DNA of 64,000 nucleotides from a virus (taxonomy: Duplodnaviria > Caudoviricetes). Positions 5,735 to 23,005 of the stretch are shown here, piece by piece. Numbering within the stretch: position 1 is the first letter of the stretch; every line of letters begins with the position of its first letter. Made by a program: the position numbers and the translations under genes. The stretch lies in the IMG/VR virus record IMGVR_UViG_3300032233_002382, positions 64,001-128,000 of that record. One strand, written 5' to 3'. The notes below the pieces were generated by a model, which was not told where the DNA came from, did not search any database, and worked only from the letters and a program-made list of their open reading frames with translations.

Positions 5735-6052
5735 CTATTCTTCGGAACCGCCGGACTCCTCAGAACCACCAGCCTTAACACGGCTTTCCATAGTCTTAAC
5801 GAGGTTCTCGAGTGCCTTCAGTCCCTGAGGTAGTTCCTTGAAAGCGTCAACCACTTCTTTTTCCTGACCCTGGAATTTGGGTCCTAGTATTTTCAATCGG
5901 GACATCTTCTGGTCAAGAGTCTCTTCCTTACCAGCAATCTTCGAAACGAGATTCTTTAGATCCCGAATAACGAGATCTTTCGAAGGACTCTTAGAGGCCT
6001 CGATAGTTGCCGCAATTCGCTTGAGTTCTCTAGATAGGTCTGACGGATTCAT
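5735..6052 (-). CDS. Hypothetical protein with N-terminal KRIAA/KIAG leader
   Basis: 105 aa; GGGAG RBS. Confidence 0.7.
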   Translation of the reverse strand: MNPSDLSRELKRIAATIEASKSPSKDLVIRDLKNLVSKIAGKEETLDQKMSRLKILGPKFQGQEKEVVDAFKELPQGLKALENLVKTMESRVKAGGSEESGGSEE

Positions 6053-6088
6053 AGGTTTTCTCCCTGCAATACGTGGGTAATAAGTGAT

Positions 6089-6673
6089 TTAAATAGATAT
6101 GGAAAGAGCCGCCTCAAGATATTTCTTTCGATCGTTGAAATATTTGAGGTAATAAGCATGTTCCCAGACATCTAAAGTGAATAAAACTTTGGCGTTCACT
6201 AAAGACTGATTCTGGTGATTTTCGATCACATTGATCATTAACTGATTGGCGATCTGATCCTCGGCGAGACAGACCCAAGCGGACCCCTCAGCCTTAGTAC
6301 CAGCTTCAATGAATTGCTCTTTGAAAGACTCAACCGAACCGAAATCCTCGACCAGCCTTTCCTGAAGACCCTTCAAGATAGTGTTTGACGGATCGATACA
6401 ATTCCAGTATAAAGTGTGAAGAATGTGACCACTATAATTAAAAGCGAGATTTCTCTCAATTCCCTTTAGGTGAGTGAAATCCTTCTTCTCTCGAGCCTCT
6501 TGAAGTTGATCCAGGTTCTCATTCAAACCATCTACATATGATTGGTGGTGCTTGTCATGGTGTAAAGATAAAATTTGTTCGGGGATTATATGGCTTATAG
6601 ATTTGGGGTCAAATGGTAATGGCGGAAGGATATAACGGCTTTGGGCAGCAATACGAAAGTCATAGTCGATCAT
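6089..6673 (-). CDS. sod: Fe/Mn superoxide dismutase with short N-terminal extension
   Basis: YxLPPLPF start, HHDKHHQSYV, GHILHTLYW, GSAW and DVWEHAYY metal-ligand motifs; the metal cannot be assigned by eye. Confidence 0.93.
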   Translation of the reverse strand: MIDYDFRIAAQSRYILPPLPFDPKSISHIIPEQILSLHHDKHHQSYVDGLNENLDQLQEAREKKDFTHLKGIERNLAFNYSGHILHTLYWNCIDPSNTILKGLQERLVEDFGSVESFKEQFIEAGTKAEGSAWVCLAEDQIANQLMINVIENHQNQSLVNAKVLFTLDVWEHAYYLKYFNDRKKYLEAALSISI

Positions 6674-6716
6674 ATACTAATGTCCCAAAAAGAAATTAAA
6701 TACCGCAAAGCACAGC

Positions 6717-6750
6717 GGAAGTCGGCGCGTCGGCGCGTCTATTTGGTGGG
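6717..6750 (+). promoter_or_regulatory. Promoter-like motif copy
   Basis: GGAAGTC-ggcgcgtcggcg-CGTC-tattt-GGTGGG, then a gggcgg/ccgccc hairpin and GGAGG RBS. Confidence 0.7.
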
Positions 6751-6782
6751 CGGATTGGCCGCCCCCGTATCGGAGGATTGAG

Positions 6783-8267
6783 ATGGACTTTACCGCATCT
6801 ATTACGCGTCTGAGCGACCCTAAGAACGTTGCGACCAGCCCCCGACAGCTCAAGGATCTGAACGAAAAGATCTCGAGCACCATGACCCGTCTCTTCCGAC
6901 AGCCTGAGAACGGAGGCAATCCGTTCCTCTTCGCGCTCGCTGGCCCCAAGCCGCACGAGCTGGCTCGTGACGGGATCGATACCGCAGCGACCGATGGCAA
7001 GAAGTTCTACTGGAATCCGGACTGGCTCGAGCAGATGGATGCCGACCAAGTGGCGACCATCATGTCGCACGAGTCCTACCATGTCCTCTTCTTCCATTGC
7101 TCTCCGGAGCGGGCGGGTGGTCTGAACCCGCAGGTCTGGAACATCGCCGTCGACTACATCGTGAACGGGGTGATTATGGCCGATCACGAGAAGTCGGGTC
7201 GTTCGAAGAAGCAGCCTAAGTTGTTCTACGGGGCCATGGGCACCCCGATCTCGCTCCAGCAGTACATCGAGTGGATTGACGGCAAGCGTGACTCGCTTCC
7301 GGAGCCTGGGTGCTTCGCGGACGAGACGACTCACGGTCGAAGCCCTGAGTCGATCTACGACCAGATCCAGAAGGCCTTCATGAACAGCCCCCGTCGCTGC
7401 AAGGAGAATGCAGGTGGTTGCGGGGCGCTCTCCATCGACCCCAAGACCGGCATTTCGACGCTGGGTCCTGGCCCCTACGAGCCGGATTGCTGCCAGAAGT
7501 GCGGTGCCAAGCCGAACCAGGGGTTTGGGCCAGGGTCGCTCGACTCCCATCTCCCCTCCCAGCAGACCAAGGATGAGACCCTTGGAGATATGATGAGGGC
7601 GGCTGAGCAGACCCGTGCCATGGGTCGCGGGGATGTGCCAGGGGATATTGAGGCAGCCCTGGGTCGCCTCAAGAAGCCGGAGCTGTCTGCGCGGGATATC
7701 ATCCGTGCAGCCATCGCCCAGAAGCGACTGGATGCCGGTAATAACAATGATTGGAAGCGATTCCGTCGTCGTCCAGCATACATCTACGAGAAGGATGTGG
7801 AGGGTAACTACAAGCCCACCCACCGGCTCTACACGCCCAAGAAGCACGACTTCAAGCCGAAGTGGGTCGCGCTGATGGATACCTCTGGCTCGATGAGCGA
7901 TGATGATATCGCCAACGGGGTGAAGGAGCTGAAGATTGTGGCGGATATTGCCGAGGGTACTATCGTCCCCTGCGACACCCGCCCCTTCTGGGATAAGGCC
8001 ACCAAGGTCACGAAGGCCACCGATATCACGCGGACCAAGGTGGCTGGTCGTGGAGGCACCGTCTTCGAGCAGTTCTTCCGTGAGCTTCCGAAGCAGGCTT
8101 GCGGTCAGGAAGTGGACCTTGTAATCATCATCACCGACGGCGACTGTGATCAGGTTCCGGTGAATCTGATGCCCAAGGGGGCCGATACCCTGTGGATCAT
8201 CACGAACAAGCGGGAGTTTAAGCCGAATTTCGGACGGGTTTGCCAGCTCCGTCCCTCCCACGCGTAA
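6783..8267 (+). CDS. DUF2201-like putative metallopeptidase + vWA domain protein (MoxR partner)
   Basis: TAATDG..FYWNP, HESYH (HExxH), WNIAVDYIVN; C-terminal MIDAS DTSGSM, GRGGT.F, IIITDG; Cys-rich insert. Confidence 0.85.
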   Translation: MDFTASITRLSDPKNVATSPRQLKDLNEKISSTMTRLFRQPENGGNPFLFALAGPKPHELARDGIDTAATDGKKFYWNPDWLEQMDADQVATIMSHESYHVLFFHCSPERAGGLNPQVWNIAVDYIVNGVIMADHEKSGRSKKQPKLFYGAMGTPISLQQYIEWIDGKRDSLPEPGCFADETTHGRSPESIYDQIQKAFMNSPRRCKENAGGCGALSIDPKTGISTLGPGPYEPDCCQKCGAKPNQGFGPGSLDSHLPSQQTKDETLGDMMRAAEQTRAMGRGDVPGDIEAALGRLKKPELSARDIIRAAIAQKRLDAGNNNDWKRFRRRPAYIYEKDVEGNYKPTHRLYTPKKHDFKPKWVALMDTSGSMSDDDIANGVKELKIVADIAEGTIVPCDTRPFWDKATKVTKATDITRTKVAGRGGTVFEQFFRELPKQACGQEVDLVIIITDGDCDQVPVNLMPKGADTLWIITNKREFKPNFGRVCQLRPSHA

Positions 8268-8276
8268 GATAACCCT

Positions 8277-8313
8277 ATCCCACCCAGGCATCACTACGAT
8301 GCCTGGGTGGGAT
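8277..8313 (+). terminator. Hairpin terminator
   Basis: atcccacccaggcatc/gatgcctgggtgggat 16-bp stem after the vWA stop. Confidence 0.65.
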
Positions 8314-8333
8314 CTTTCGTATTTAGGTGACAC

Positions 8334-8645
8334 ATGCCGAAAGATACTAAGAAGTACACGGAAAAGGAACGGGCAGCCGCGATTCAGAAGATGTATCGGT
8401 TCTTGACGGACAAGCATCAGAACCATAGTTGGGTGTTCCGTCCAGGCAGAGACCCGATTTTCACTCGGACTAAGTCACCGCAGGATCTCTACAATCTCAT
8501 CCAGATGTTCTTCTACCATGAGCATGAGATTAAAGCACTTTCTAAGTGGGCCAATACCCACAAGCGGGCCTTTAAAGAGTTGAAGCCTGAGGACTATAAG
8601 GCAGTCCAGGATCTATTTGCCGTCGAAGCCGTTCACGAGTCTTAA
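8334..8645 (+). CDS. Hypothetical protein with C-terminal tag (...AVEAVHES)
   Basis: AGGTG RBS; 103 aa. Confidence 0.75.
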   Translation: MPKDTKKYTEKERAAAIQKMYRFLTDKHQNHSWVFRPGRDPIFTRTKSPQDLYNLIQMFFYHEHEIKALSKWANTHKRAFKELKPEDYKAVQDLFAVEAVHES

Positions 8646-8649
8646 ATAA

Positions 8650-8685
8650 CTTGAGGGCCCTGGGATTCGTTCCAGGGCCCTCAAG
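8650..8685. terminator. Hairpin between convergent genes
   Basis: cttgagggccctgg/ccagggccctcaag stem. Confidence 0.65.
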
Positions 8686-8716
8686 CGAGCGGGTAGCGAC
8701 TTCGAACTAGTTTACA

Positions 8717-9400
8717 CTAGAAGGAATAGTCTACCACCGTAAACTCTTCCGCCTCGCCAGCGCGGCAACCGCACGCGCAATCGGGCGGACAGTGGCAGGT
8801 GCCAGCTCCGCACGCCTCACAGCCGCACGAACAGGCGGGAGCGACAGCGTGCGACGGCGCATGGTCGTGCACCGTCGGCATCGACCCCTTGGACTTCTCG
8901 CCCATAATATAACGTTTGGCTTTAGCGACACGGTCTGCAGCTTCAGACAGACACTGATCTACCCACTGAGGTAGGTCGTCACAATTGTTCATGAGCTGCA
9001 TTATTTCCATGACGTCGTGCATCATGGTTACCGTGTTTGAATAAGCCATGTATGATACTGGAAAGACCCCAGGATGCTCTTCGATCACCACGTTCGGATC
9101 TAGAAGGACAGTAGGAGCCATACCAGAAGTACTGGAACGCTTCTTACCAAACCCATCAGATAATCTCTCGGCCACTTCGAGAGCCATGGCACCTGGTCCT
9201 CGATGTTTGATGTAGCTAAGCTGAGTTTTAACGTCAGTGGGCTTGTGAACCAAAACACCACCTTGCTTTTCGAATTCATCTGGCTTTACATGAAGTTCCA
9301 AAGCTCGTACATTTTTACTCTTATTTACTACTTTAACAATATCATCGATTATCTTTTTAATATTTTCATCTGCAGACATACGATAGTCATAATTAGACAT
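8717..9400 (-). CDS. Hypothetical protein with DYRMSA leader and metallothionein-like Cys-rich tail
   Basis: GGAGG before ATG 9400 (MSNYDYRMSA); tail CSCGCEACGAGTCHCPPDCACGC. Confidence 0.75.
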   Translation of the reverse strand: MSNYDYRMSADENIKKIIDDIVKVVNKSKNVRALELHVKPDEFEKQGGVLVHKPTDVKTQLSYIKHRGPGAMALEVAERLSDGFGKKRSSTSGMAPTVLLDPNVVIEEHPGVFPVSYMAYSNTVTMMHDVMEIMQLMNNCDDLPQWVDQCLSEAADRVAKAKRYIMGEKSKGSMPTVHDHAPSHAVAPACSCGCEACGAGTCHCPPDCACGCRAGEAEEFTVVDYSF

Positions 9401-9455
9401 AGTTCCTCCAGTATTACAACACTTCAATAATGGTCTATATAGGTTAAGCAGATCC

Positions 9456-9489
9456 GGAAGTCGGACGGCCCGACCGTTTCGCATATGCA
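9456..9489 (+). promoter_or_regulatory. Promoter-like motif variant (GGAAGTC-N12-CGTT, third element absent)
   Basis: First two elements at conserved spacing, upstream of 9511. Confidence 0.55.
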
Positions 9490-9510
9490 AGACTAACCAA
9501 CGGAGTCGAA

Positions 9511-10278
9511 ATGCTACTGAGTGAGATGGACGCATCTGATGCCGCCAAAGAAGTGCTCAAGTCTGAGAAAATTCATAAGCTTGGGAGCGAATCTGATCAA
9601 GAGCATGAAGAGAAGGTGGCTCAGATCCACAACGATGTCGCAAGGATTATCGAATTTATTCGGAATGCGAAGATTACTTCCACAGAAATCAAAGCAAATC
9701 GTGGTTCAAAGTATGGATCACTGATTTCGAATCAGTATCCTGGTGTCTACATCCATCAAATCATCACGCTATCTGATGGAAAGCACAAGTACTCAGTAAA
9801 TAATCCCGAATTAATCGCAAAGACTGACTATGCGGACCAGAACAAGATAGTTCCATCAAGTTTCTTCGGGATTTGGGGTGATAAAAGAGTATACCTGAGC
9901 GACCGCTCCCTGTCTCGAATGACCAAAGCCGCTCCGAATCTTGTTAATCTATATCGAAGTGCTCTTGAGATTCGTTTGGGGTTTACGCAGGAAATTGCCG
10001 AACAAGCCGCAGACAAGTATGTGAATAAGAACCAAGGGCGCGCAAAGGCTCAGATTATTAAGAAGATGGGTGGCTTCCTTGCCGAATGCAATCTCAAAGA
10101 TGAGGACCCGGAGTTCCTTCTCCAGATCATGAAGTTCATCTCTCGAGACAACTTCTGGGAGATGAAGAATTTCTTCAATTACTGTCGACGAAATCGTGGT
10201 GATATCAATTTTCTGACACCCGATGAAGTGATCCAGGCTCAAAATCTTGCTAAGGCGATTGAAATCCAGAAGTCCTAA
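9511..10278 (+). CDS. Hypothetical protein with C-terminal tag (...KAIEIQKS)
   Basis: 255-aa ORF downstream of the motif. Confidence 0.75.
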   Translation: MLLSEMDASDAAKEVLKSEKIHKLGSESDQEHEEKVAQIHNDVARIIEFIRNAKITSTEIKANRGSKYGSLISNQYPGVYIHQIITLSDGKHKYSVNNPELIAKTDYADQNKIVPSSFFGIWGDKRVYLSDRSLSRMTKAAPNLVNLYRSALEIRLGFTQEIAEQAADKYVNKNQGRAKAQIIKKMGGFLAECNLKDEDPEFLLQIMKFISRDNFWEMKNFFNYCRRNRGDINFLTPDEVIQAQNLAKAIEIQKS

Positions 10279-10286
10279 AGGGAACT

Positions 10287-10320
10287 GGAAGTCGGACGCG
10301 GCGCGCGTCTTCTTGGTGGG
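10287..10320 (+). promoter_or_regulatory. Promoter-like motif copy
   Basis: GGAAGTC-N12-CGTC-ttctt-GGTGGG, then a gggcg/cgccc hairpin and GGAGG. Confidence 0.7.
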
Positions 10321-10349
10321 CGACTTGGCGCCCGATATGGAGGCATAAC

Positions 10350-10676
10350 ATGGCTCGCACGAATGAATTCACGAAGCTGGCTGAGGTTGTCGAGGTGATG
10401 GAGGTTCCAAGTGGGTGTTTTAACAAGATGCGAATCTGCATTACTGGTCATCTGGGTAAGCCTCGACATGAGATCGTCCGTCTTATTGAGCAGGGTGGTG
10501 GTGTTTTTCATGACACTGTGAAGTACGACACCACCCACCTTCTGACGAACGCTGATTGGACGACGATCAATGGGAAGACTTCGTCCAAATACGACAAGGC
10601 CAAGAAGTATGGATGCAAGTTCATCAGCGAGGCTGATTTCTTCTCGATGATGACATCGGCTGAGGCAGCCGCATGA
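10350..10676 (+). CDS. Stand-alone BRCT-domain protein (LigA C-terminal-like)
   Basis: ICITG, R.EI..LIE..GG.F...V...TTHLL, SSKY.KAKKYG..FISE..F pattern. Confidence 0.8.
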   Translation: MARTNEFTKLAEVVEVMEVPSGCFNKMRICITGHLGKPRHEIVRLIEQGGGVFHDTVKYDTTHLLTNADWTTINGKTSSKYDKAKKYGCKFISEADFFSMMTSAEAAA

Positions 10677-10963
10677 ACTTCTACATTGGCGTGATCTCTG
10701 AAGCCGACAACTTCGATTTAAACATCAAGTACCTTGATACGATTTATACGTCGAGGGAAGCGAACATCGCCAAGAAATACTACGACTCCCTGAATGAAAA
10801 AGATAAGAAGTGGTTTGAACGGTTATCTTTCGACAGTATGATGTGGTGGAGTCGGGCGTTCGTTGATGGAATTAAGAAGACCCCGAAGGAATTGAAAAAG
10901 GAACGGGGTGACTTGATGAGAGCAAAGAGGGAGGCCAAACGTGCCGCACAAATTCGCAGTTGA
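10673..10963 (+). CDS. Hypothetical protein
   Basis: ATGA overlap with the previous gene; 96 aa. Confidence 0.7.
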   Translation: MNFYIGVISEADNFDLNIKYLDTIYTSREANIAKKYYDSLNEKDKKWFERLSFDSMMWWSRAFVDGIKKTPKELKKERGDLMRAKREAKRAAQIRS

Positions 10964-11645
10964 TAATGGCTCGACCGACACTGAAATCGAACAAGCGATG
11001 GACCATATCCGGCATACGATCGAACTAGGCCGTCAAGCCGAATTAGCATTAATCAATATTGAGAGACAGGGATATCACAACGGCGACATCACGGTAGTTG
11101 TTGATCCGAATACTAAGACCTATCACGGTGCTCTTAGGAATCTTCGCCTAGCCAAGTACATTGAGCCGACTCGTGATAAGGCTCCATCTTTTGCCGACCT
11201 AAGTGTGACTTGCGGGAGAATGATGGAAGATTCTCACGGCGGTCATTATTTCAAGAGCTGCGAAGTGACCTTAAGCGGAACTCGAGTGAATCAGATTGAG
11301 GGAAAGCTCGTGAACGAGCCATTTTCCATCATCATGGGGAATCTGAGGCTTAAGAAGACCGGACTTTCGATCGAGCTGAAGCATGAACAGTACTACAACC
11401 GATACGACGTAGCTCAGGTATACAAGAAGCCGACGGGATCTTCCATGTCGTCTTATAGAGAGATTGCCAAGTGCGTTGCGGATCATGTGGTGTCGATCGC
11501 AAATAGTTATCATGATCCAGAATTGCAGATTACGCACGATCTTCGGATGAAAGCCCGAGAGTGGTTGGTTTCGGAAGGTGTCATTCAGCGTCTCTCCACG
11601 AGTCTTTTCGAGCAAGCCAAGATTGTTGAGGTGATGAATGCGTAG
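10941..11645 (+). CDS. Hypothetical protein with C-terminal tag (...KIVEVMNA); start uncertain
   Basis: 234-aa ORF in operon. Confidence 0.7.
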   Translation: MPHKFAVDNGSTDTEIEQAMDHIRHTIELGRQAELALINIERQGYHNGDITVVVDPNTKTYHGALRNLRLAKYIEPTRDKAPSFADLSVTCGRMMEDSHGGHYFKSCEVTLSGTRVNQIEGKLVNEPFSIIMGNLRLKKTGLSIELKHEQYYNRYDVAQVYKKPTGSSMSSYREIAKCVADHVVSIANSYHDPELQITHDLRMKAREWLVSEGVIQRLSTSLFEQAKIVEVMNA

Positions 11646-12144
11646 CAGTACTACCCTTCATTATCATAACCTGCCTCAAGCCATCAGTGTAATCAAATCG
11701 GCAAAAGTATCCTCAGCCGGTTCTACCCTAAAGGGTAATTCGATTCAAGTAAGGGTTAAGTTTACGAATACGATGGGTCAGCCGTCGATCGGATATTTTT
11801 CGATCAATTCGAGTCGTATTTCAGACTACAAATTCTACGACCCTGGGTTTATGCGAAAATGCTTTCGAATGTCTGCAATCGGGTCGGCTGCTCGAAACCA
11901 GTATGATGACTGGGTTAAGGGAAATCCGGTCGAATTGCGTAGACTTCAGAAAGAAATCCTCGATGCGGCTAAGAAAGAATACTCAGAGGGTGAAGCCACT
12001 AGGCGCAAAAACGAAGCAGTTGTTGCTAAGTGCCGAAAGGCGCTTTCCGAGTGGATGATCCATTCCTTCAAGCACGGGATTGAGCAGGAGGAGATTCTAG
12101 ATATCATGAGGGAGTCGCTCATCAAGTCTACGATGTCCGAGTGA
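11638..12144 (+). CDS. Hypothetical protein with C-terminal tag (...LIKSTMSE)
   Basis: Overlapping start; 168 aa. Confidence 0.7.
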   Translation: MRSSTTLHYHNLPQAISVIKSAKVSSAGSTLKGNSIQVRVKFTNTMGQPSIGYFSINSSRISDYKFYDPGFMRKCFRMSAIGSAARNQYDDWVKGNPVELRRLQKEILDAAKKEYSEGEATRRKNEAVVAKCRKALSEWMIHSFKHGIEQEEILDIMRESLIKSTMSE

Positions 12145-12152
12145 TGAAATGC

Positions 12153-12186
12153 GGAAGTCGGATGCGCCGTGCGTCTCATATGTGGG
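12153..12186 (+). promoter_or_regulatory. Promoter-like motif copy (GGAAGTC-N12-CGTC-N5-TGTGGG)
   Basis: Conserved spacing; GGAGG downstream. Confidence 0.7.
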
Positions 12187-12217
12187 CGCACGGCGCGCTC
12201 ATTTGTGGAGGTGAATT

Positions 12218-12838
12218 ATGGCGAATCCGGTTCTTCTTGCGAAGTTTACAAATCCTGGTCCGGTTGCGAATGCGTTCATTAAGGAATGGAACGAGTATTT
12301 TAAGGGTTCTAAGTACGTCGGGCATGGTGCTAGTAAGACCGGTACCACCGCTTATGCGAAATTCTCCATTCCGGCTGTGAATAAGTTCAAGCTTTGTAAG
12401 GTTTCGATCCGAGTCCGCTATCATAGCAAACCGAGCGGAGTGTCTATCACTTCAGATGTGTGGGAGGCCTGGGCCAAACTCCGTGTCGAGAAGATCACGG
12501 ACGGGGCGAGAAGTCGGAACATGTTCTACGATTGGACACGCAATTACACGGGAGAGTCCTCTCTATCTAAGCTGTTCAATGAGACCGGTGCCAATGGACA
12601 CCAAGATCTATATGAAGCATTCTTTACGGCAGTCGGATTCATGCCGGAGTTAGATAAGGCTGCAAAGGATGTCGCCTCATCATCAACCGTCGAAGAGAAA
12701 AAGAAGATTCACGAAGTCAAGAGCGCGCTTTTTGACATTCGTGCACCTCTGCGTACTCTCCTCCGACACGGCATTGAAACTGAACAGTTGCATGAGATGA
12801 TCAATCACGAAATCGTGGATCTAATCACCGATGGATGA
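12218..12838 (+). CDS. Hypothetical protein with C-terminal tag (...IVDLITDG)
   Basis: GGAGGTG RBS; 206 aa. Confidence 0.75.
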   Translation: MANPVLLAKFTNPGPVANAFIKEWNEYFKGSKYVGHGASKTGTTAYAKFSIPAVNKFKLCKVSIRVRYHSKPSGVSITSDVWEAWAKLRVEKITDGARSRNMFYDWTRNYTGESSLSKLFNETGANGHQDLYEAFFTAVGFMPELDKAAKDVASSSTVEEKKKIHEVKSALFDIRAPLRTLLRHGIETEQLHEMINHEIVDLITDG

Positions 12839-13184
12839 AGCCAAGATTAAGGAAGTCATCACCGAGTTCGAAGGTTACCCAAAAGAATATAAGGATCAGA
12901 TGCTACAGAGGTGGTGGGAAATTAGCCCATATCTGGACAATAAGTCCGACATGCTAGCCAAGACTTTATCTTGGATTGCGTACGCCTTTAACCATAAAGA
13001 AGAGTATTGGTGGTCTAGGGAAGCAATTTGGTTTCTGCACAAGAATGATCCTGAAGTATCCGTGTATGCTCTGGTTGATCAGTATGGGTATGATTGGAAG
13101 AACACAGTAATGCCGCAATTAAAGCCAGTGTTTGAAGTGATTGCTCACCCCAGCTTACTTGTCGGTGGAATTCACGGTTCCTGA
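12831..13184 (+). CDS. Hypothetical protein
   Basis: Overlapping start; 117 aa; aromatic-rich. Confidence 0.7.
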   Translation: MDEAKIKEVITEFEGYPKEYKDQMLQRWWEISPYLDNKSDMLAKTLSWIAYAFNHKEEYWWSREAIWFLHKNDPEVSVYALVDQYGYDWKNTVMPQLKPVFEVIAHPSLLVGGIHGS

Positions 13185-13193
13185 AGCAAATCC

Positions 13194-13227
13194 GGAAGTC
13201 GCGTGCTGCGCGCGTTCTCTGGGTGGG
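13194..13227 (+). promoter_or_regulatory. Promoter-like motif copy (GGAAGTC-N12-CGTT-N5-GGTGGG)
   Basis: Conserved spacing; gggcgg/ccgccc hairpin and GGGAG follow. Confidence 0.7.
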
Positions 13228-13260
13228 CGGGCGGTCCGCCCCCATTATGGGAGAGATTAG

Positions 13261-14064
13261 ATGGATCTCATGTCGATGATCGATGGCGTTCTGGCGAAGA
13301 ATGGTGTTCCGGTTGCGGTCGTTCCCGAGCCGGTCTTGGAGAAGAAGGAGGATGTCGTCGTGAACAATGCACACGTCTGCGATGAGATCGTGGCGGCACC
13401 GAAGATGGTGGAGATTCCGCCGGACCAGGTCTATATGTACAAGGGCATGCGCCACAAGCTGGTGTTCGAGGGAGTCTGCTCCCACTGCGCGCACTGTGGG
13501 CAGCCTTTGACCGACTCAGAGTCCGTTGAGCGCGGTCTCGGTCCGATCTGCTCGAAGAAGGGCTACCTCGAGGAGGTCGTTCCCGTCGACGACACCGAGG
13601 CTCTCCTAGCGCTGGCTGAGTATCCGCAGCTGGTCGAGTACCTCACGGCGAAGTACAAGCCGCAGGGGAATCGAGCTCTCTGCAACGGTCTCGTCAGGAC
13701 CGCTTCCTTGAACCGGAGGACCCCCGTCCACGCCGCTTGTACTGACGCGGTGGAGGCATTGGGCTACAAGCGGCTGGCTTCCGCCCTGCGCGAGTCCCTC
13801 TCCGTTGTGGAGATTTCGGACTCGAAGACGAAGCCCGACTGCTACGGCCTTTGGGTGAAGAAGTCCGACTTCTCGTGGCAGTTTTGGAACGAGTTGAAGG
13901 CTCTGAACGGGGTTTATATGACGCGGTACCCCGCACGCGAGACCGTCGTCCCGAAGGTGCATCGCCGGAAGCTGGCTGAACTCCTCTTGAAGTACTACGA
14001 GGGGCTTTGCGTGAAGACCCAGAACGGGGCTCACAAGATTTCCCCGGCATGGTTGGGGAAGTAG
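13261..14064 (+). CDS. Zn-binding phage protein, DUF6011-like motif
   Basis: CAHCGQPLTDSESVERGLGPIC resembles CxxCGxxLTxxxSxxxGxGPxC; GC3-rich. Confidence 0.7.
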   Translation: MDLMSMIDGVLAKNGVPVAVVPEPVLEKKEDVVVNNAHVCDEIVAAPKMVEIPPDQVYMYKGMRHKLVFEGVCSHCAHCGQPLTDSESVERGLGPICSKKGYLEEVVPVDDTEALLALAEYPQLVEYLTAKYKPQGNRALCNGLVRTASLNRRTPVHAACTDAVEALGYKRLASALRESLSVVEISDSKTKPDCYGLWVKKSDFSWQFWNELKALNGVYMTRYPARETVVPKVHRRKLAELLLKYYEGLCVKTQNGAHKISPAWLGK

Positions 14065-14365: not shown

Positions 14366-14449
14366 TGATCTCCCGTTCAGGTTCTACCGTAACAATACGG
14401 CTTAACAATGGTTCCCATTTACATTCTAAGATCTCGAAAGAGGGTCAAT

Positions 14450-14950: not shown

Positions 14951-15018
14951 TCTATTGTATCCATTTTGGGACAGGTACCCCAAATTCATAAACCAAGTAC
15001 CTACCATGGAGAGTTAGT

Positions 15019-15369
15019 ATGTTTAATCGTGTTCCGGTCCAGAACGACATCATGAACAACACTGTAGGTGAGACGTCTGTCGAAGGACGAATTATTCCGG
15101 TCGGTCGTGGCGGTGAAGCAATCGTGTTCGAAATTCCGATGGGGTTCTTCAAGATTGTAGCAATCGCCAACATTCCTGAGGAAGGCGCTGAGAAGGCGCC
15201 AGTCTACCTCAAGCTCAAGGTAGGCGATTTTGCGTATCAGCGGGCTCAGAATGCACAGGCTCGTGCGAATAGCCGCCGTGCCGCTCGACAGGCTCAGTAC
15301 GCAAACAATGGACATGACTCGGACGTAGATGATGGTGATTATGAAGGTGATGATTCCCATCCCGCGTAA
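15019..15369 (+). CDS. Hypothetical protein, acidic tail
   Basis: GGAG RBS; 116 aa. Confidence 0.7.
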   Translation: MFNRVPVQNDIMNNTVGETSVEGRIIPVGRGGEAIVFEIPMGFFKIVAIANIPEEGAEKAPVYLKLKVGDFAYQRAQNAQARANSRRAARQAQYANNGHDSDVDDGDYEGDDSHPA

Positions 15370-15377
15370 AGCGGCGC

Positions 15378-15411
15378 GGAAGTCTCGCGGTCGGCGCGTC
15401 CGATAGGTGGG
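15378..15411 (+). promoter_or_regulatory. Promoter-like motif copy
   Basis: GGAAGTC-tcgcggtcggcg-CGTC-cgata-GGTGGG. Confidence 0.7.
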
Positions 15412-15505
15412 CACGGGGCGCGAGTCGCGGTGGCGCGGGGATGATCTGGTGCATTGTGCACTGGACCTCCCCCGCAGCGAGCTCCCTCCCCGAATGGAGG
15501 CCCAA

Positions 15506-16177
15506 ATGCAGACGCAGAATGGTTCGGCGCTCGAGATCCTCAAGTCACTCGGTGTTTTCCAGATGGTCGCTCCCCCGCAGGTCCCTGCCGTTTCGGATCC
15601 CGCACTCTCCGGCGCGGTTCGTGAGAAGAATGTGGTCCGTCTCGGCGAGGATCCCTCGATCCAGACCAAGGCGGAGCATGCGGCTCAGCTGAAGGCGGCG
15701 CTCGAGAAGGCGCAGTCCGACTTCGAGGCCATCCAGGGTGAGATCAGGGAGTACGGCAAGGAGAAGCGGGACGCCTTCAACGACCACTTCCGGACCAACA
15801 TCACCACCGTTGCAATCCCATACGGTGATGAGAAGGCGGTGCAGGTCATTTGCGCCAACCGGTACTCGGTCAAGAAGGACATCATCCTGAACAACAAGGC
15901 GGCGTTGGGCTCGACGGTGAATGATCTTTTCACGATTGAGACCACGCGTTCGCTCAAGGCCAAGGGAGAGGACCTGCTTCGTCGGCTCCTCGTCGAGGTC
16001 GGTGTTCAGGCGAAGGACGTGGAGTTCGTCCTCAACGAGCTTACTGAGGTCGAGCACACGGTCAAGACGGTGGAGGATTACGAGCAGAAGGCCAAGCTTG
16101 TGACCGATACCGGAGTTCAGGAGATCTTGGCTCAGGCGGTCTCCCGCGCCTCCCCTGCTCTCAAGTTCGTCGGTTAG
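15506..16177 (+). CDS. Hypothetical protein with N-terminal coiled coil
   Basis: GGAGG before ATG 15506; very GC3-rich. Confidence 0.75.
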   Translation: MQTQNGSALEILKSLGVFQMVAPPQVPAVSDPALSGAVREKNVVRLGEDPSIQTKAEHAAQLKAALEKAQSDFEAIQGEIREYGKEKRDAFNDHFRTNITTVAIPYGDEKAVQVICANRYSVKKDIILNNKAALGSTVNDLFTIETTRSLKAKGEDLLRRLLVEVGVQAKDVEFVLNELTEVEHTVKTVEDYEQKAKLVTDTGVQEILAQAVSRASPALKFVG

Positions 16178-16187
16178 TTCTTAATCC

Positions 16188-16228
16188 GATGTGGGGGGAG
16201 GGGTCTAAGCGACCCCTCCCCCCACATC
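16188..16228 (+). terminator. 18-bp hairpin terminator
   Basis: gatgtggggggaggggtc/gacccctccccccacatc then TTT. Confidence 0.7.
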
Positions 16229-16244
16229 TTTCCTGGAGGTCCAT

Positions 16245-16850
16245 ATGGTCCCGAACGTTCTTGTCAGCTATGTTCCCCTATTCTATGGTCAGCCCGGAAC
16301 CATCCTTGAGAAGGATGGTGAAGTTGAAAAGACCCTTAAGGATGCCTTCGATCAGGAAGTTGGTCACTCCAAGGGAGCTGCCTGGTCTCTCGAGGAGGAT
16401 GGGTCTTCCGCCGTGACCCTGATTCTCGACAAGGCTACTGAGATTTCTAAACACTTGATGGCGTGGTCTGAGAATAAGCCGAGTGATTGGTTCACATTCC
16501 AGATCGTAAAGAATGACGGTGGTTACGCGATTGCCATCATGCCCGAAATGGAAAAGTCGATGGTGCGGTTCAAGTCGACCTACAAGGTGGCGGACGAGGA
16601 GGCGAAGTCGGTGCGAATCATCTTCCGACCGCTCACCTTCTCATCTGAGTCCGTATCAGCGCTCAATGGAGCGGAACCGAACATCAAGGACGAAATTCGG
16701 GTCTATGTGTTGGACGCCGATCTGGTGAACGAAAAGAAGTTCTCCCCGAATCATTTGAACCACCGGGTTGAATTAGGTAAGTTCAAGGTGGTTCGTGACG
16801 GTTTCGCCAAGCAGTACCTGGAAGAGATGATCGCGAGCGAAAAGAATTAG
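16245..16850 (+). CDS. Hypothetical protein
   Basis: GGAGGT RBS; 201 aa. Confidence 0.75.
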   Translation: MVPNVLVSYVPLFYGQPGTILEKDGEVEKTLKDAFDQEVGHSKGAAWSLEEDGSSAVTLILDKATEISKHLMAWSENKPSDWFTFQIVKNDGGYAIAIMPEMEKSMVRFKSTYKVADEEAKSVRIIFRPLTFSSESVSALNGAEPNIKDEIRVYVLDADLVNEKKFSPNHLNHRVELGKFKVVRDGFAKQYLEEMIASEKN

Positions 16851-16868
16851 GAAACAAGAGAAATAAGT

Positions 16869-16910
16869 AAAGTTTGGGGACTTCTCCTTCGGGGGAAGTC
16901 CCCAAACTTT
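16869..16910 (+). terminator. UUCG-capped hairpin terminator
   Basis: aaagtttggggacttctcc-ttcg-ggggaagtccccaaacttt. Confidence 0.75.
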
Positions 16911-16921
16911 TATAAGCATAT

Positions 16922-17347
16922 ATGAGTATGGATTTATTTGAAAAAATTGCTAAAAGAATCGCTTCTAACTATAAGCGGCAGCGATTTACATGTAAGGGAA
17001 ATCGTTGGAAAGTGCCGGATCTGCTTAACTTCATCAAAGAGCAGGAGATAGAGCTCGTGATGTATCCGGTCGCTCCATTATATGAAAGAGTGTCAACCTC
17101 TCCTGAAGGATACTTCGACGAGCCCTTTGAGAGCCCCGAGTTTATCGAAAGAGCCATGAAGTCCGATTACAACACCTATCCGGTCGTACTCTTTGATCTT
17201 CCAGATAAAATCCGGATCGCTGACGGAAATCACCGGGTGTATAAGGCGTTCAAGGATGGGGCAGAATTCATCCCAGCATATGTATTATCTGAAGAGCAGG
17301 TATGGCAGGCCCCGCACGCTCCCGTAGAAGAATCTGCTTCAGATTAG
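16922..17347 (+). CDS. ParB/sulfiredoxin-like domain protein with KIAKRIA leader
   Basis: PVVL....IRIADGNHRVYKA...G.EFIPAYV motif. Confidence 0.75.
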   Translation: MSMDLFEKIAKRIASNYKRQRFTCKGNRWKVPDLLNFIKEQEIELVMYPVAPLYERVSTSPEGYFDEPFESPEFIERAMKSDYNTYPVVLFDLPDKIRIADGNHRVYKAFKDGAEFIPAYVLSEEQVWQAPHAPVEESASD

Positions 17348-17476
17348 GTAATTGTTTAAAAACCAATAATTATTTTGAAAATCACCCGAATGACTCAGGG
17401 CTGGGACATGTCTTGGGTTGTATTATGACTTAACGGAAATTTCCTGAAAACTTAGTTTCTTTTATGGGAGAATCAT

Positions 17477-18775
17477 ATGATCGAAAGATACGCGCAGCCT
17501 GAGATGACTGAAATCTTCTCGGACCGGACTAAGTTAGAGCTCATGATCTCGGTTGAGAAGGCTGCCGCCTCGGCGATGGCTTACAAGGGCCTAATCCCGG
17601 TTGATGCCGAGATTGCTATCAATAACTACAAGGTCGATTTCGACGATGCGCTCCAAAGAATTCCTGAGATCGAAAAAGAGACTCGGCACGACGTCCTGGC
17701 GGTTTTGAAGTACCTAGAGTCGAAGATCGGTCCTGAGGGAAGGTACCTTCACCGAGGGATGACGAGCTCTGATGTCCAGGATACCGTTCTAGCCATACAA
17801 CTCGTCCGGGCCGGGCGGATTATCTTGAAAGAGTCCAAGATTTTGAGGGATTTCCTTAAAGAAACTGCGATCAAGTACAAGAAGACTCCGTGCGTTGGAA
17901 GATCCCACGGAATGCACGCTGAGGTAACGACGTTTGGACTCAAGGTCCTCAGCTGGCATGGCTATGTTGCCAGGGCCCTCAAATTATTTGAAACGGCTCT
18001 GTCTGAAGTCGGTTATGGGAAGATATCGGGCGCCGTCGGAACTTATGCCCATCTGAGCCCTGAAGTCGAGGAATCAGCTTTATGGCGAATGGGTTTAAAG
18101 TGCCAATACCCTTCAACGCAAATTGTGCCGAGGGATCGGATAGCTAATTTGATGGCGGCGATGGCCTCGATGGGAAATGCGATTGAAGTAATTGCCCTGG
18201 AAATCCGCCATTTATCTCGAACGGAAGTTTCAGAGGTCGCAGAATCTTTTGCAAAGGGACAAATGGGCTCGAGTGCGATGCCCCACAAGAAGAATCCGAT
18301 TGTTTCGGAACAGATGTGTGGTTTAAATAGAATCCTTAAAGGATATCTAATACCGGCCTTTGAAGACGTTCCCCTCTGGCATGAAAGAGATATCTCCCAC
18401 TCCTCTGTAGAGAGATTGATTGTTCCAGACGCATTCCATATCTTGAAATACATGATCTCAAAGACAACTGGGATGGTTTTGAATTTAGTCGTGAATTCCG
18501 AAAGGATGGAGTCTAACCTAAGGATGACTCTTGGAAATATCTTTTCGGGATCGTTATTACTTAAAGTGTCCGATCGGGTCGGGCGGGACGAGGCCTACAC
18601 GTACGTTCAGCAGTTAGTGCATACCGAGTCGACCCATTCGCTTAATTTCCGAGTGAGGAAAGACGAGAAAATTATGGGGTGGCTGACCAAGGAGGAGATT
18701 GAAGAGGTGTTCAGTATATCTCACCATCTAAGACATGTCGATGAAATATTTGACCGAGCTCTGAGAGATGGCTAA
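17477..18775 (+). CDS. purB: Adenylosuccinate lyase
   Basis: HDVLA, HRGMTSSDVQDT, GRSHGMHAE, ISGAVGT, SSAMPHKKNPIVSE signature, WHERDISHSSVER. Confidence 0.95.
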   Translation: MIERYAQPEMTEIFSDRTKLELMISVEKAAASAMAYKGLIPVDAEIAINNYKVDFDDALQRIPEIEKETRHDVLAVLKYLESKIGPEGRYLHRGMTSSDVQDTVLAIQLVRAGRIILKESKILRDFLKETAIKYKKTPCVGRSHGMHAEVTTFGLKVLSWHGYVARALKLFETALSEVGYGKISGAVGTYAHLSPEVEESALWRMGLKCQYPSTQIVPRDRIANLMAAMASMGNAIEVIALEIRHLSRTEVSEVAESFAKGQMGSSAMPHKKNPIVSEQMCGLNRILKGYLIPAFEDVPLWHERDISHSSVERLIVPDAFHILKYMISKTTGMVLNLVVNSERMESNLRMTLGNIFSGSLLLKVSDRVGRDEAYTYVQQLVHTESTHSLNFRVRKDEKIMGWLTKEEIEEVFSISHHLRHVDEIFDRALRDG

Positions 18776-19139
18776 ACCAAACATGCTTAAAATGAGTTGC
18801 ACGATTCAAGATGGGTGGGGTTATGTCGAATTTTCCAAGCGGGCCGCATATGAGACCCAAGAGCTCATAAGAGATTGTATCCACGAGCAATCTAAGTTCG
18901 GCTATGGGATGGCGACCGTTCACCGTCTTTCCCGTATGTATATGGAACTGGATAAATCCACGAACCTCGAAATGCTGTCGAGGGAAGACTTGGATTGTCT
19001 CAGGAAGTGCCTTCCGACTGTTGAAATTGAAAACCAAATGAACTGGTTCTATCGGGCGAATTTCTTTAAGCCAGATCAGGGGAAGTTCAAAGAGGCCAGT
19101 CAGATTTGCAAATCAATGTTCTCGATTCATGAGGAATAA
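18768..19139 (+). CDS. Hypothetical protein, possible C-terminal tag (...SMFSIHEE)
   Basis: Overlapping start with purB; 123 aa. Confidence 0.65.
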   Translation: MAKPNMLKMSCTIQDGWGYVEFSKRAAYETQELIRDCIHEQSKFGYGMATVHRLSRMYMELDKSTNLEMLSREDLDCLRKCLPTVEIENQMNWFYRANFFKPDQGKFKEASQICKSMFSIHEE

Positions 19140-19294
19140 CGAGACAGTCTCACTAAACGATTGTTCATTTTGAGACATTAATTCGTTCGAAAAACAAATC
19201 TCTGTCTAAGTATATGGCAGAGATTTTCACAGTATATGGCATATATTTCGTCAATGTGTGGCATATATTTTAACAACATAACGGATAAATCGCT

Positions 19295-19588
19295 GTGTTG
19301 AAGGAATTTAAACAGGCATTCCTACAAGCGTTCGTTGAAACCGTCGTTCGGGGTTATCCGGAGAAATCTAGATTCAAGAAGGTCAAATTGGAAGATAGAT
19401 CCTGGAGCGTTTGGATACTCGAGACCAAAGAGGGGATGCAGCTCCTCTCTGTCCAGGGCTATATCGACGATGCAATTCCGGAAGACGGCTCGTTTATTGG
19501 CGCGTTTGAATTGTGTGGCAATCTTACTGAAGTCGAAGCGGACCAGATGATGGATCGAATTGCTAAAGAGAGATCTGCAAGCCCCTAA
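19295..19588 (+). CDS. Hypothetical protein
   Basis: 97-aa ORF with protein-like composition; no clear RBS. Confidence 0.45.
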   Translation: MLKEFKQAFLQAFVETVVRGYPEKSRFKKVKLEDRSWSVWILETKEGMQLLSVQGYIDDAIPEDGSFIGAFELCGNLTEVEADQMMDRIAKERSASP

Positions 19589-19589
19589 A

Positions 19590-20440
19590 ATCCCGAAAAG
19601 AGAATATAATACCTATACGGGGCCGTTCAAACGTATATTTGATTTTTTACGGGTTTCGAGGTTTTTACGGGTTTCGAGGGTTTTGCAGGTTTTCTCCGTA
19701 TTTAGTTTCGAGGTTTATCCAGGTTCCCGAGTCATTTGCGAGGTTTTACGATTGATGGGGGGGGGTTGTGCAGGTTTACGAGGGAGTGATGGGTTACGGA
19801 GGGTTTATGGGATTCCAGATTGCTTTACAGGGTTCCGGATATTTATAAAATTTCGTGAATTTGATGTGATATAACCGGATTGAGTATTGTCCGGTATGAG
19901 AGCCCGGTTTACCTTGACTCCCGATCCCGTACAATTTCGTCTTATGCTAAACGAATTTCCTCCACGTTCCTCCCGTAAGCTTCCCGTTTTGGAGTTAGAA
20001 CCCCGTAACGTCTTCTTTAATCTATCTCGTTCCGAAGTCCTTTTAAGCGGTTTCGGAACCGTTTCGGTTTCTCGTACCGATTCAACCCCGTTTCGTCCTT
20101 CCTGTGTTGTCCGAAGGGTGTTCCTTGCCTTTCCTAGGGGGTCTCGATTCGACTTGATTATCGAGTTCGTCGGTAAGACTTCCCGCAAATTAATATAATT
20201 ATTATATCGGCTAAATGAGGCCCATATAGTGTGGCGCTTCCGACGTTTTCGGAATTCTAAGTGTCTAATTTATCGATGAGACCCTAATAAGCCGTGGAAA
20301 CGGATCCGATCGATTTTGACGAATTCGTGAACCGCCGTTCATACCTGAACGAAAGTTCATGATAAAATTGTTACCCGATATCTATATACCGTTCATTTAT
20401 CCGATCTTCCGAAGCCGTTTACACTTTTACTAAGATCTCA
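19590..20440. other. Largely non-coding, strand-skewed, low-complexity region with short repeats
   Basis: G/T-rich tract with repeated GTTTCGAGG (TTTTACGGGTTTCGAGG in tandem), then a C/T-rich tract; ORFs here look non-protein-like. Confidence 0.6.
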
Positions 20441-20445
20441 TCGAT

Positions 20446-21372
20446 ATGAGCTTAATTGAAAAGATCGCTTCTCGAATTTCACGTTTAGCCGCCTTGGTTG
20501 AAATCGTCGATTTAAGTCAGATGAAGCATCCAGAGGATCTTGATAACATTCAGATCTTCGAGAAATCCGACCCCAAGTACGATTCGGTTTTTAAATTCTT
20601 CGAGACCTTTGACATCCCCGTTAGCGTCTTCCGCGTCACCCAGACGGTCCCCGGATATTTTAACAAGACCCCAGCCGAATTCCTCGAGACCATCCGGAAG
20701 ATCCACAATCCGAACGCCATCAACGTTATCCACACCGAAACCGCCGATATGTCTCCCGGATGGGTCGCACACGACTTATTCCACGTCTTACTGGAGCGCA
20801 ACCCCGATCACGACATTCTCGCGGGCGTCATAGGCGATAACGTTTTGGCGGGTTTACTCGATCTAGATCAGTGGCGCTCTGAATTTGATCGAGCATTCCG
20901 CAAGGATTTTGCCACCGCTTTATCCGAATATTCCGAAGGCGCCGACATTGAAACCGGTCCAATATCCGACATGGTTATGCGGTACATTTCGGACACACGT
21001 CTCAAGAATAAGTTGGTCTCAGTCAAGCTCAATCAAGACACCGATATGTACCCAGATCTCTTCATAAGTTGGGTCCTAAGGAACGGTCAATATCGTTCGG
21101 TTCCTCTCCGGTACGTCTCGACCTATCTCAATAAATTCGATAACTCCGAAGGTGTGGAACTCGGGAACACTTCGAATCCTGTATTCTATGAAGTAACAGT
21201 CGGATTTAATAAAGGGCGCGATGCCTACGGCTATCTTGGAGCCTTTAAGATACTTCCAGACGATCCATCACTTCCCGCACTGACCGAGACTCTCGATCGG
21301 TTTAATCGGACCGCTTACGACACAGTTCGAAGCAATTTCCAACGTTTCATCGGTCGTGACTTCATCGTTTAA
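20446..21372 (+). CDS. Hypothetical protein with KIASRISRLAA leader
   Basis: 308-aa ORF; internal HDLFH motif. Confidence 0.75.
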   Translation: MSLIEKIASRISRLAALVEIVDLSQMKHPEDLDNIQIFEKSDPKYDSVFKFFETFDIPVSVFRVTQTVPGYFNKTPAEFLETIRKIHNPNAINVIHTETADMSPGWVAHDLFHVLLERNPDHDILAGVIGDNVLAGLLDLDQWRSEFDRAFRKDFATALSEYSEGADIETGPISDMVMRYISDTRLKNKLVSVKLNQDTDMYPDLFISWVLRNGQYRSVPLRYVSTYLNKFDNSEGVELGNTSNPVFYEVTVGFNKGRDAYGYLGAFKILPDDPSLPALTETLDRFNRTAYDTVRSNFQRFIGRDFIV

Positions 21373-21381
21373 GGATTCGAC

Positions 21382-22260
21382 TTGACCTCCCCAGATTCGT
21401 CCTCGATCGCGAAGGTTCAGCAGAATCTTCAGCGGATCCAAGCCTTTAACGATTACATATACAATAACGGCGGTTCCTATATCGCCAATTGTTACTTGCT
21501 TCTGACCGCTCAGGACGACCATGACCCCGGTCTCCAAGTCGGCATCGATCTTCTCGAGGGTGCTTTCGGCGTCGTCGGATCCTTCGGCGCGTTCGGCGGT
21601 TTCGCCGCCTGTTTTATGTGCGCTGAGGTCTCCGCCTGGACCTCAGATACTCCCCCGAACCTAAATTCGACTTTCGCCGACATGACCACACGGTTCCAGA
21701 AGTCGTCGATGGCTTTCGACTATAAGTGCGCTTTATATGCTTCCGATCCGGTCACTTATTGGGATAAGACCTTCACTTGGAACGGTCAGACCATCACGCT
21801 TGGCGATCTCGCCACAATCGACTTTCCAGCCGAATCTGACCCGCAGTTCTTCCCGATGGCCGAGGCCTCTCTCGAGTCCCTTGATATCACCATATGGAAG
21901 ACCGTCCTTCGGCAAAATTGTTGGCTAACCCTTTGGCTCACGAACGGGGCACCAGAGAAGCTGTATGTCGATGATATCCTAGCCTGGGATGAGAATTATA
22001 TAGCTCTCCATCCCGCATGGTACTGCACATGGGAATGGCATAATAAGTCCGGTCTCTTCGACTCTTCCTATTGGGCCGTTAAGGAATGGAACCTGAATTT
22101 CGGGTCGGGTCGATATAAGGCTAATAACGTCCCGGATGCTGCCTGCGATTATCTCTTCACAGACTCTTCGGACGGACACGTCATAAATCCGGAAGGTCTC
22201 GCTTCCCGCCGTGATGTTTTTGAAAAATGGGGAATCCGAACCGACATCGTGTCCGAATGA
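21382..22260 (+). CDS. Hypothetical Trp-rich protein with a Gly-rich hydrophobic segment
   Basis: 292-aa ORF with TTG start after AAGGA. Confidence 0.7.
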   Translation: MTSPDSSSIAKVQQNLQRIQAFNDYIYNNGGSYIANCYLLLTAQDDHDPGLQVGIDLLEGAFGVVGSFGAFGGFAACFMCAEVSAWTSDTPPNLNSTFADMTTRFQKSSMAFDYKCALYASDPVTYWDKTFTWNGQTITLGDLATIDFPAESDPQFFPMAEASLESLDITIWKTVLRQNCWLTLWLTNGAPEKLYVDDILAWDENYIALHPAWYCTWEWHNKSGLFDSSYWAVKEWNLNFGSGRYKANNVPDAACDYLFTDSSDGHVINPEGLASRRDVFEKWGIRTDIVSE

Positions 22261-22306
22261 TATCGATTTTCGCGTCTTAATTTGTATATATACTTAGGAG
22301 ACCCTT

Positions 22307-23005
22307 ATGGACCTAAAGAATGTCGCAAACCGCATCGCGAGATCCGGACACACGGCTGGTATCCTAGACGACGCATACGCCTCAATATATCGGGTCCTAA
22401 GCGGAAAACCCTCAGACTCTCAGATTAAGAGCACCCTCAAGGACTTCGCCACGAGTCTTGATGAGGCTCTAGGCGACCTTTGCAATAAGGTCTTTAAAAC
22501 CTACGCCGATCTCGATCGAGCAGGTCACGGCATTATGGTGACTTATAAAGACATTAAGTCGGGTTACCAACCTCACGATCGGATCAAAGACTATACTTCC
22601 TATCTCGCAAAATCCTTTAGAGAGTTTAGAGAAGCCAGCGAAGCCTTAACCAGGGCGGTTTCTGAGGTGCAAAAATCGCCGGTCCTTGCGGAGATGAAAG
22701 ATAAAGCCTCCCACGATAACCGCTTTAAAACCATAGTCAAGGCGGTTGAGTCGATCAAGTTCCCGTCAATCGATGACTCTGAAGCTTACGGAGTTCGACC
22801 AAGCCAGTCACTCCCTAACGATTTGTCGATCGGCAAGATCTACGACAATATTGAAGTCGCTTATTCTTGGTACACCAACTGCCTGCAGCCTGGGAAATCT
22901 ATACCAAACCAAGCCAACGACATGGTAAAGAAGATACAGTCGACCATTGAGAGTCTACCTAGGGTGATCGATTCAGTCAAATTCGTACCTGGCCGAAACC
23001 AGTAG
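22307..23005 (+). CDS. Hypothetical protein with NVANRIA leader
   Basis: AGGAG RBS; 232 aa; helical. Confidence 0.75.
   Translation: MDLKNVANRIARSGHTAGILDDAYASIYRVLSGKPSDSQIKSTLKDFATSLDEALGDLCNKVFKTYADLDRAGHGIMVTYKDIKSGYQPHDRIKDYTSYLAKSFREFREASEALTRAVSEVQKSPVLAEMKDKASHDNRFKTIVKAVESIKFPSIDDSEAYGVRPSQSLPNDLSIGKIYDNIEVAYSWYTNCLQPGKSIPNQANDMVKKIQSTIESLPRVIDSVKFVPGRNQ

Follow-up and report, generated by a model that had tools for sequence, protein, structure and literature searches.

A short terminal peptide shared by unrelated proteins of a huge-phage lineage, a candidate address for the phage head

Why should genes with unrelated products begin with the same few amino acids? The question is raised by a 64,000-nucleotide stretch of tailed-phage DNA (Caudoviricetes; hereafter the window), bases 64001-128000 of the single 307,777-bp virus contig IMGVR_UViG_3300032233_002382, in which the initial annotation had seen one [KR]IA leader at the starts of six genes and read it as a signal for capsid targeting or cleavage. 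All six strings are indeed found at those gene starts among the open reading frames of the window, but the six genes belong to three different classes and not to one. The shared leader stands for the genes at 16922, 20446 and 22307, which carry an 11-residue peptide that we call the class A tag. The gene at 5735 has a longer tag with two helices (class B), and the likeness of the last two, a superoxide dismutase (SOD) gene and the gene that begins at 9400 (class C), is probably coincidence. We find that the class A tag is real, selected at the peptide level, portable, conserved within a clade of huge phages, present at either protein terminus and co-occurring with one lineage of head genes.

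The contig (46% GC, standard genetic code) is classed in IMG/VR as linear and about 72% complete, and its nearest cultured phages are distant: its major capsid protein shares 45% identity with its counterpart in Tunturiibacter phage Tunturi_5 and 37% with the one in Bacillus phage G. The host of Tunturi_5 hints at Acidobacteriota-like hosts for the clade, whose contigs come from freshwater and soil samples. We called 327 genes with a self-trained hexamer model and a ribosome-site score; some of the starts may be wrong. A portal search returned 39 IMG/VR loci at 65-80% identity, several of them on complete genomes of 360-440 kb, and two complete relatives (393 and 377 kb, one of which is referred to below as G3) were gene-called and compared with the contig. 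Coordinates are those of the window unless the contig or a relative is named.

In this contig the class A tag reads M-[DN]-[LF]-x-[RK]-I-A-x-R-[IV]-[AS], and across 41 tags from the three genomes the consensus is M-[DN]-[LF]-x-[RK]-I-A-[SA]-R-[IV]-A-[ASG], with the core beginning at residue 6 or 7 in 29 of the 41 and a Gly/Ser-rich linker of variable length behind it. In the contig, the second half of the tag consists of R-I-[AS] and then a small residue, with no aromatic, and G3 has the variant I-[AS]-x-R-V-A-x-x-[WY]-L. Sixteen solid genes of the contig hold the core [IV][AS]x[RKH][IV][AS] at residues 5-12, compared with about 0.5 expected, and two further short open reading frames, both doubtful, hold it as well. 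Tagged N-termini number 17 and about 10 in the two complete relatives, which is 16- and 9-fold above the interior rate. The three proteomes gave 59 matches of at least 11 bits to a position matrix, where shuffled proteomes gave 2-4 (an excess of about 15-fold); 40 of the 59 are N-terminal, seven are C-terminal (8-15 residues from the end) and a few are internal. Overall, about 5% of genes carry the tag. The broader scan proposed in the initial annotation points the same way, since over the whole contig [KR][IVM][AS] is 2.4 times commoner at N-termini than inside proteins, and RIA within the first 15 residues reaches about 10 times its frequency in protein interiors.

The codons used for Ile, Ala, Arg and Ser change freely from one copy of the tag to the next, so that what is conserved is the peptide and not the DNA or RNA. 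The annotated genes had been described as unrelated downstream, and this was borne out: once the tag is removed, BLASTP links none of the bodies except those of one tandem family of GNAT-like paralogs, outside the window. The majority of tagged proteins have no homologs in other genomes, the cargo being mostly genome-specific. Among those with orthologs, the tag is kept in the family of g279898, a head-module protein described below (12 relatives, about 40-55% identity, linker of variable length), in the g233102 family in all three genomes, and in a ferritin-like protein in two. The hydrophobic residues at positions 3, 6, 7, 10 and 11 are predicted to form an amphipathic helix, and in an AlphaFold2 model of g279898 residues 3-13 are helical and followed by disorder, although with a mean predicted local distance difference test score of 49.8 the model is too poor for a fold search. 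When a degenerate DNA pattern of the tag was searched for in IMG/VR, it was found in 12 places, 11 of them true gene starts and mostly on contigs of 270-430 kb; three of the five further contigs tested carry the same capsid-protein lineage at 74-92% identity. On a 41.6-kb contig classed as a provirus (L118, IMGVR_UViG_3300013725_000006), a gene begins MDIRRIAGRIADAP and no match to this capsid lineage is found; this may be use of the tag outside the lineage or a chance match.

The class A features of the window are as follows.

16872-16907, plus strand: terminator-like perfect hairpin, 14 nt before the ATG at 16922, with GGAAGTC at 16894-16900
16922-17347, plus strand: tagged gene of 139-141 amino acids with a ParB/Srx-like body, likely start 16928
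16928-16966, plus strand: class A tag peptide MDLFEKIAKRIAS, core IAKRIA, with codons unlike those of the other tags
20446-21372, plus strand: tagged gene of 308 amino acids, body of unknown family, tag MSLIEKIASRISRL at 20446-20487
22307-23005, plus strand: tagged gene of 232 amino acids, helical body, tag MDLKNVANRIARS at 22307-22345, preceded by an AGGAG ribosome-binding site

For the first of these genes, the start at 16928 is favoured by a database copy (P0001) that begins MDLFEK. One homolog of the gene is found in a large protein database; the homolog P0002, at 66% identity, retains KIASRIAS. Its product matches PHROG 17560 (unknown function), and the Atlas feature and structure searches offer a ParB_N fold for the body, which we treat as a lead only. 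The 20446 gene has no Pfam or PHROG match and no homolog in seven relatives (two complete, five partial). The 22307 gene likewise matches no Pfam or PHROG family, the Atlas giving only weak leads to helical bundles, and none of the three genes has a homolog in the two complete relatives.

The initial annotation had also set these genes apart from a second class, marked by the motif GGAAGTC and a C-terminal tag, to which the leader was thought complementary. The motif is generally absent upstream of the flagged genes, as had been stated, with the exception of the copy at 16894-16900 just before the 16922 gene. This copy lies in the hairpin listed above (GTTTGGGGACTTC...GGAAGTCCCCAAAC), which closes the preceding gene, and the supposed promoter word is simply one arm of the stem. 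The proposed complementarity holds as a count but not statistically: 0 of 24 tagged genes compared with 19 of 304 untagged genes have the motif, a non-significant difference.

Tagged genes can also be grouped or carry more than one tag. At 11351-13719 of the contig (loci L001-L004) four tagged genes stand in tandem, three of them diverged GNAT-like paralogs each with a tag of its own. In G3, at 80128-81030 and 8868-10544 (L097-L098 and L094), the tag occurs where domains meet inside the protein and a second time close to the C-terminus, a layout that may be polyprotein-like.

The other three flagged genes lie on the minus strand.

5735-6052, minus strand: class B protein of 105 amino acids, its first 42 or so residues (5927-6052) forming the two-helix tag
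6089-6673, minus strand: Fe/Mn superoxide dismutase with a 13-residue N-terminal extension, MIDYDFRIAAQSR (6635-6673), not class A
8717-9400, minus strand: untagged 227-residue protein with a Cys-rich tail, start MSNYDYRMSA (9371-9400) preceded by a GGAGG ribosome-binding site

The class B tag has the consensus MxPS[DE]LSxxL[KR]RIAAxIEASKSPSKDLV. By BLASTP, the N-terminal domain of about 40 residues in the 5735 gene matches six paralogs in the genome (E values 1e-8 to 2e-13), five with the domain N-terminal and one (G0_40607) with it internal at residues 97-146, as well as proteins of both complete relatives. Its first helix holds the same I-A-x-K-I core as class A, and on the class A matrix LRRIASKIDAS, the core of a paralog, reaches 10.1 bits (P about 0.005). 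One G3 protein (L103:2746-3861) bears both tags, the short one (MSSIAERVAAMYW) and then the two-helix domain. The class C pair was rejected as leader carriers: RIAAQSR of the SOD and RMSADEN of the 8717-9400 protein fail the class A core pattern at 5-12 residues from the start, and the likeness of DYDFRIAA to NYDYRMSA, which scores 28 in an all-against-all comparison of N-termini, is at chance level, with shuffled N-termini reaching 28 about twice per proteome. The dismutase has both of its domains, with Pfam matches to Sod_Fe_N (E 1e-23, residues 14-93) and Sod_Fe_C (E 2e-25), and the only SOD among the relatives (in one partial relative, 31% identical) lacks the extension. The 8717-9400 protein has no Pfam match, and neither class C gene has a homolog in the two complete relatives.

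Where the tag might lead its proteins is suggested by the head module, which PHROG matches place on the minus strand at 263-284 kb of the contig and which comprises a sigma-like gene, the large terminase, the portal, the prohead protease and the major capsid protein. The genes that concern us are these (contig coordinates; the entries for u437, u162 and g279898 refer to loci L016 and L014).

263152-264039, minus strand: capsid protein
264983-266296, minus strand: scaffold-like protein u437
266335-267888, minus strand: prohead protease
269026-269514, minus strand: protein u162
272009-273781, minus strand: portal protein
279898-281010, minus strand: tagged protein g279898

Tagged g279898 sits between the sigma-like gene and the large terminase, and within the module the full-tag matrix is significant only for this protein and for class B proteins. 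In the relatives, three more head-module families have strong full-tag matches, namely the u804 family, encoded after the portal, a family of small proteins encoded between terminase and portal, with a C-terminal tag in at least nine relatives, and a family whose N-terminal tag, IASR[VI]SSSNPxLxYEL, forms a bridge from class A to the two-helix tag of class B. The contig's own copy of the small terminase-portal protein (contig 274088-274339) is without the C-terminal tag.

The end of the tag recurs in the head proteins themselves. The prohead protease terminates in a conserved WKG[KR]IAS[ILV] in 20 of 22 relatives, and R[ILV]AS occurs 26 times in the contig compared with 5.9 expected, 10 of these in head-module proteins. 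With the first 14 residues set aside, head-module proteins in each of the three genomes are 7-9 times richer in R[ILV]A[AS] (P 1e-6, 3e-4 and 2e-5). The element keeps its place in the portal, where it lies in the variable N-terminal region (QSIR[VIL]A[AS]), in u162 and, among the relatives, in the major capsid protein (KRLAAS). On the question raised by the initial annotation, whether capsid and scaffold proteins carry the leader, the answer is divided: R-I-A-(S/A/G) is present in the portal, scaffold-like proteins, the protease C-terminus and the capsid protein of relatives, and the full 11-column matrix does not match them. An element of the form [RK]xA[SA] also precedes the presumed docking helix in seven of 53 matches that are not N-terminal and in about five of 14 true C-terminal tags; it is suggestive, and not a rule. 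As a separate observation, no proteins of the contig other than u437, u162 and g279898 end in (L/T)-W-(D/A)-x-x, an ending kept in the orthologs of both complete relatives except for that of g279898 in G3, and this may be a second, C-terminal docking motif. The protease gave no Pfam match and, by sequence, none to solved structures. A predicted complex of the major capsid protein (alignment A1) with residues 1-32 of the g279898 family (alignment A2) scored 0.00, which is no answer and counts neither way.

The nature of the cargo is a further, circumstantial pointer to the head. Tagged proteins include three of the GNAT family, a C39/papain-like peptidase and a ferritin-like protein, and in a relative an ART-PolyVal protein and one with a sub-threshold kinase-like match. 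Peptidases, ADP-ribosyltransferases, kinases, GNATs and ParB-like DNases are all among the ‘polyvalent’ proteins that phages are thought to package and inject (PMC5512222), and the prototype of a packaged enzyme is the ADP-ribosyltransferase Alt of T4, which is loaded by way of a capsid targeting sequence (PMC5512222, PMC3012670). The cargo classes are thus those of known injected effectors.

Of the explanations considered, a role of the tag as a head address or in head processing is the best reading, and to this extent the initial idea of a capsid-targeting leader survives; a purely N-terminal propeptide, however, does not predict the tags at C-termini. The presence of the tag at both ends argues against a secretion signal or an effect on translation and fits a docking peptide. 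We give roughly an even chance to the tag being a portable address for the head, by which the 11-residue amphipathic helix and its flexible linker would dock unrelated proteins to a conserved component of the assembling head, so that they would end up inside the capsid and probably enter the host together with the DNA. The R-(I/V/L)-A-(S/A/G) end of the tag would then be a candidate cutting site of the prohead protease, a cut that would free the cargo from its tag; we consider this cleavage step possible but rather doubtful.

Several points weigh against a head address. The full 11-column matrix has no match in the capsid, portal, protease or scaffold-like proteins, and because the full tag misses these core head proteins, their link to it rests on the four-residue motif, which was picked after the data of this genome had been seen and then held in two relatives. 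Tagged genes are dispersed across the genome, many of them not near structural genes, and k-mer enrichment in the 100 nt upstream of tagged genes in the three genomes revealed nothing convincing as a shared promoter. The cultured relatives Tunturi_5 and phage G have little or no excess of the tag DNA pattern. The phage is uncultured, and we infer the head destination, the reader protein, the cleavage and the injection from its genes. Finally, an amphipathic terminal helix is also typical of degrons, membrane anchors and chaperone-binding motifs.

The most serious competitor is a docking motif for a hub other than the capsid, such as a phage or host chaperone, or an actin-like filament or replication compartment of the phage. 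A short conserved helix usable at either terminus would suit any peptide-binding hub, a DnaJ-like protein and a MoxR/VWA pair of the contig are chaperone candidates, and both the dispersal of the tagged genes and the lack of a full match in the core structural proteins speak for it. We nevertheless think it unlikely, given that several conserved tagged families lie inside the head module, that the R-x-A-S element is common to the protease tail and the head proteins, that the tag co-occurs with one capsid lineage and that the cargo domains are those of known injected effectors. The same head-module families tell against a degron or stability signal that a host AAA+ protease would read to limit the lifetime of phage proteins, as conserved head proteins should not be unstable. 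Known degrons are short, terminal and functional at either end, 47 of the 59 matrix matches are terminal, and much of the cargo resembles enzymes that might need timed removal; yet the tag is near-invariant across phages whose core proteins are only 40-70% identical, and ClpP was not found in the contig or the two complete relatives, which leaves a host protein as the reader. We judge a degron improbable.

Less probable still is a helix that targets membranes. Terminal amphipathic helices of this kind are known from MinD, FtsA and MreB, and the tag resembles them in being predicted helical, in occurring at either terminus and in having its hydrophobic positions (3, 6, 7, 10 and 11) flanked by two Arg residues. 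It is only about 11 residues long, however, with Ala at two conserved positions, and the strictness with which I-A-x-R-[IV]-A is kept in unrelated proteins and in different genomes speaks for a specific partner protein rather than for lipid. That the tag has no function, arising by chance, from hidden paralogy or from a nucleotide-level element at gene starts, does describe the DYDFRIAA/NYDYRMSA pair. For class A this reading is refuted by the excess of matrix matches over shuffles, the variation in codons and the retention of the tag in diverged orthologs, and the unrelated bodies and the C-terminal copies also speak against it; we regard its probability as close to nil.

If the tag is indeed a head address, a more far-reaching proposal can be put forward, although only tentatively: that the clade of 300-440 kb phages uses an ‘address and release’ code by which dozens of swappable enzymes are loaded onto the inner capsid and injected with the DNA. 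The code would combine a docking helix, phi-x-x-I-A-x-R-phi-A, placed at the N- or the C-terminus of a protein, and a cut site R-phi-A|S common to the portal, the scaffold and the protease, with direct loading onto the inner capsid in the manner of encapsulins. The enzymes injected would include an ADP-ribosyltransferase, acetyltransferases, a peptidase, a ParB-like nuclease and a ferritin-like protein. It would then take no more than its genome to list the complete set of proteins that an uncultured phage injects. Among the many unknown genes of huge phages, a head address would pick out the proteins that are borne by the particle and delivered to the host, and these would probably be the effectors that strike first at host defence and transcription. 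It would also extend capsid targeting by short peptides, known experimentally in T4 and P1, to a far larger scale, with another motif and to C-termini as well. A small portable tag could serve as a tool for loading foreign proteins into large capsids, and the version of the class A peptide chosen for fusion to GFP is MDIFIRIASRIAGS. For annotation, the motif offers a simple rule for true gene starts and a candidate protease site in the clade.

Apart from these subjects, the window has two tRNA genes on the minus strand, Ser-GGA and Leu-CAA, at 821-910 and 954-1039, and a nucleotide search with the fibre region against cultured phages gave only a single 78-nt match.

Descriptions of such tags in huge phages were not found in full-text literature searches. 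In the head region of phage G (L125), whose particle proteome is published, gp13, gp17 and gp38 near the head module start MKRLI[SK]K, which may be a different shared N-terminal tag. The C-terminal tail of the herpesvirus scaffold has a maturation site (V/L/I)-x-A|S, and the candidate cleavage motif described here similarly ends in Ala followed by Ser or Ala, with x-A-S before the docking helix in five of about 14 C-terminally tagged proteins. The motif here is [RK]-(I/L/V)-A-(S/A), however, its cleavage is hypothetical, and no homology of the protease to the herpesvirus type can be demonstrated by sequence. In phage P1, an N-terminal stretch of fewer than 30 residues suffices for the entry of DarB into the capsid (PMC9024508). 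This is likewise a short N-terminal capsid signal on an anti-host enzyme, but it is known on one protein whose loading needs other Dar proteins, it has no described consensus over many proteins and it has no likeness in sequence to the class A tag.

Encapsulins load their cargo through short peptides that stand at either terminus on a flexible linker and direct it to the inside of an HK97-fold shell (PMC8346489). A terminal peptide at either end with a flexible linker is also found here, and ferritin-like proteins are among the cargo of both. The consensus is different, and class A genes are dispersed and not beside the shell gene, which lies in a terminase-portal-protease-capsid module; moreover, the phage shell is filled with DNA and has a protease and a scaffold.

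The capsid targeting sequence of T4 is MKTYQEFIAE, cut after L/I-x-E. The class A consensus has no likeness to it and no terminal Glu, and differs further in occurring at C-termini and a few internal sites and on about 5% of genes. Such a sequence is described for the T4 internal proteins IPI-III and for Alt (PMC3012670; PMC9024508, citing Mullaney & Black), where a peptide of about 10 residues at the N-terminus is the sole feature common to diverse, fast-evolving proteins. The class A tag shares this hallmark, a short N-terminal peptide common to unrelated proteins, in the contig and in two relatives. As in T4, an ADP-ribosyltransferase is among the cargo, and the end of the tag, a motif that is also present in the proteins of the head, may be a further parallel.

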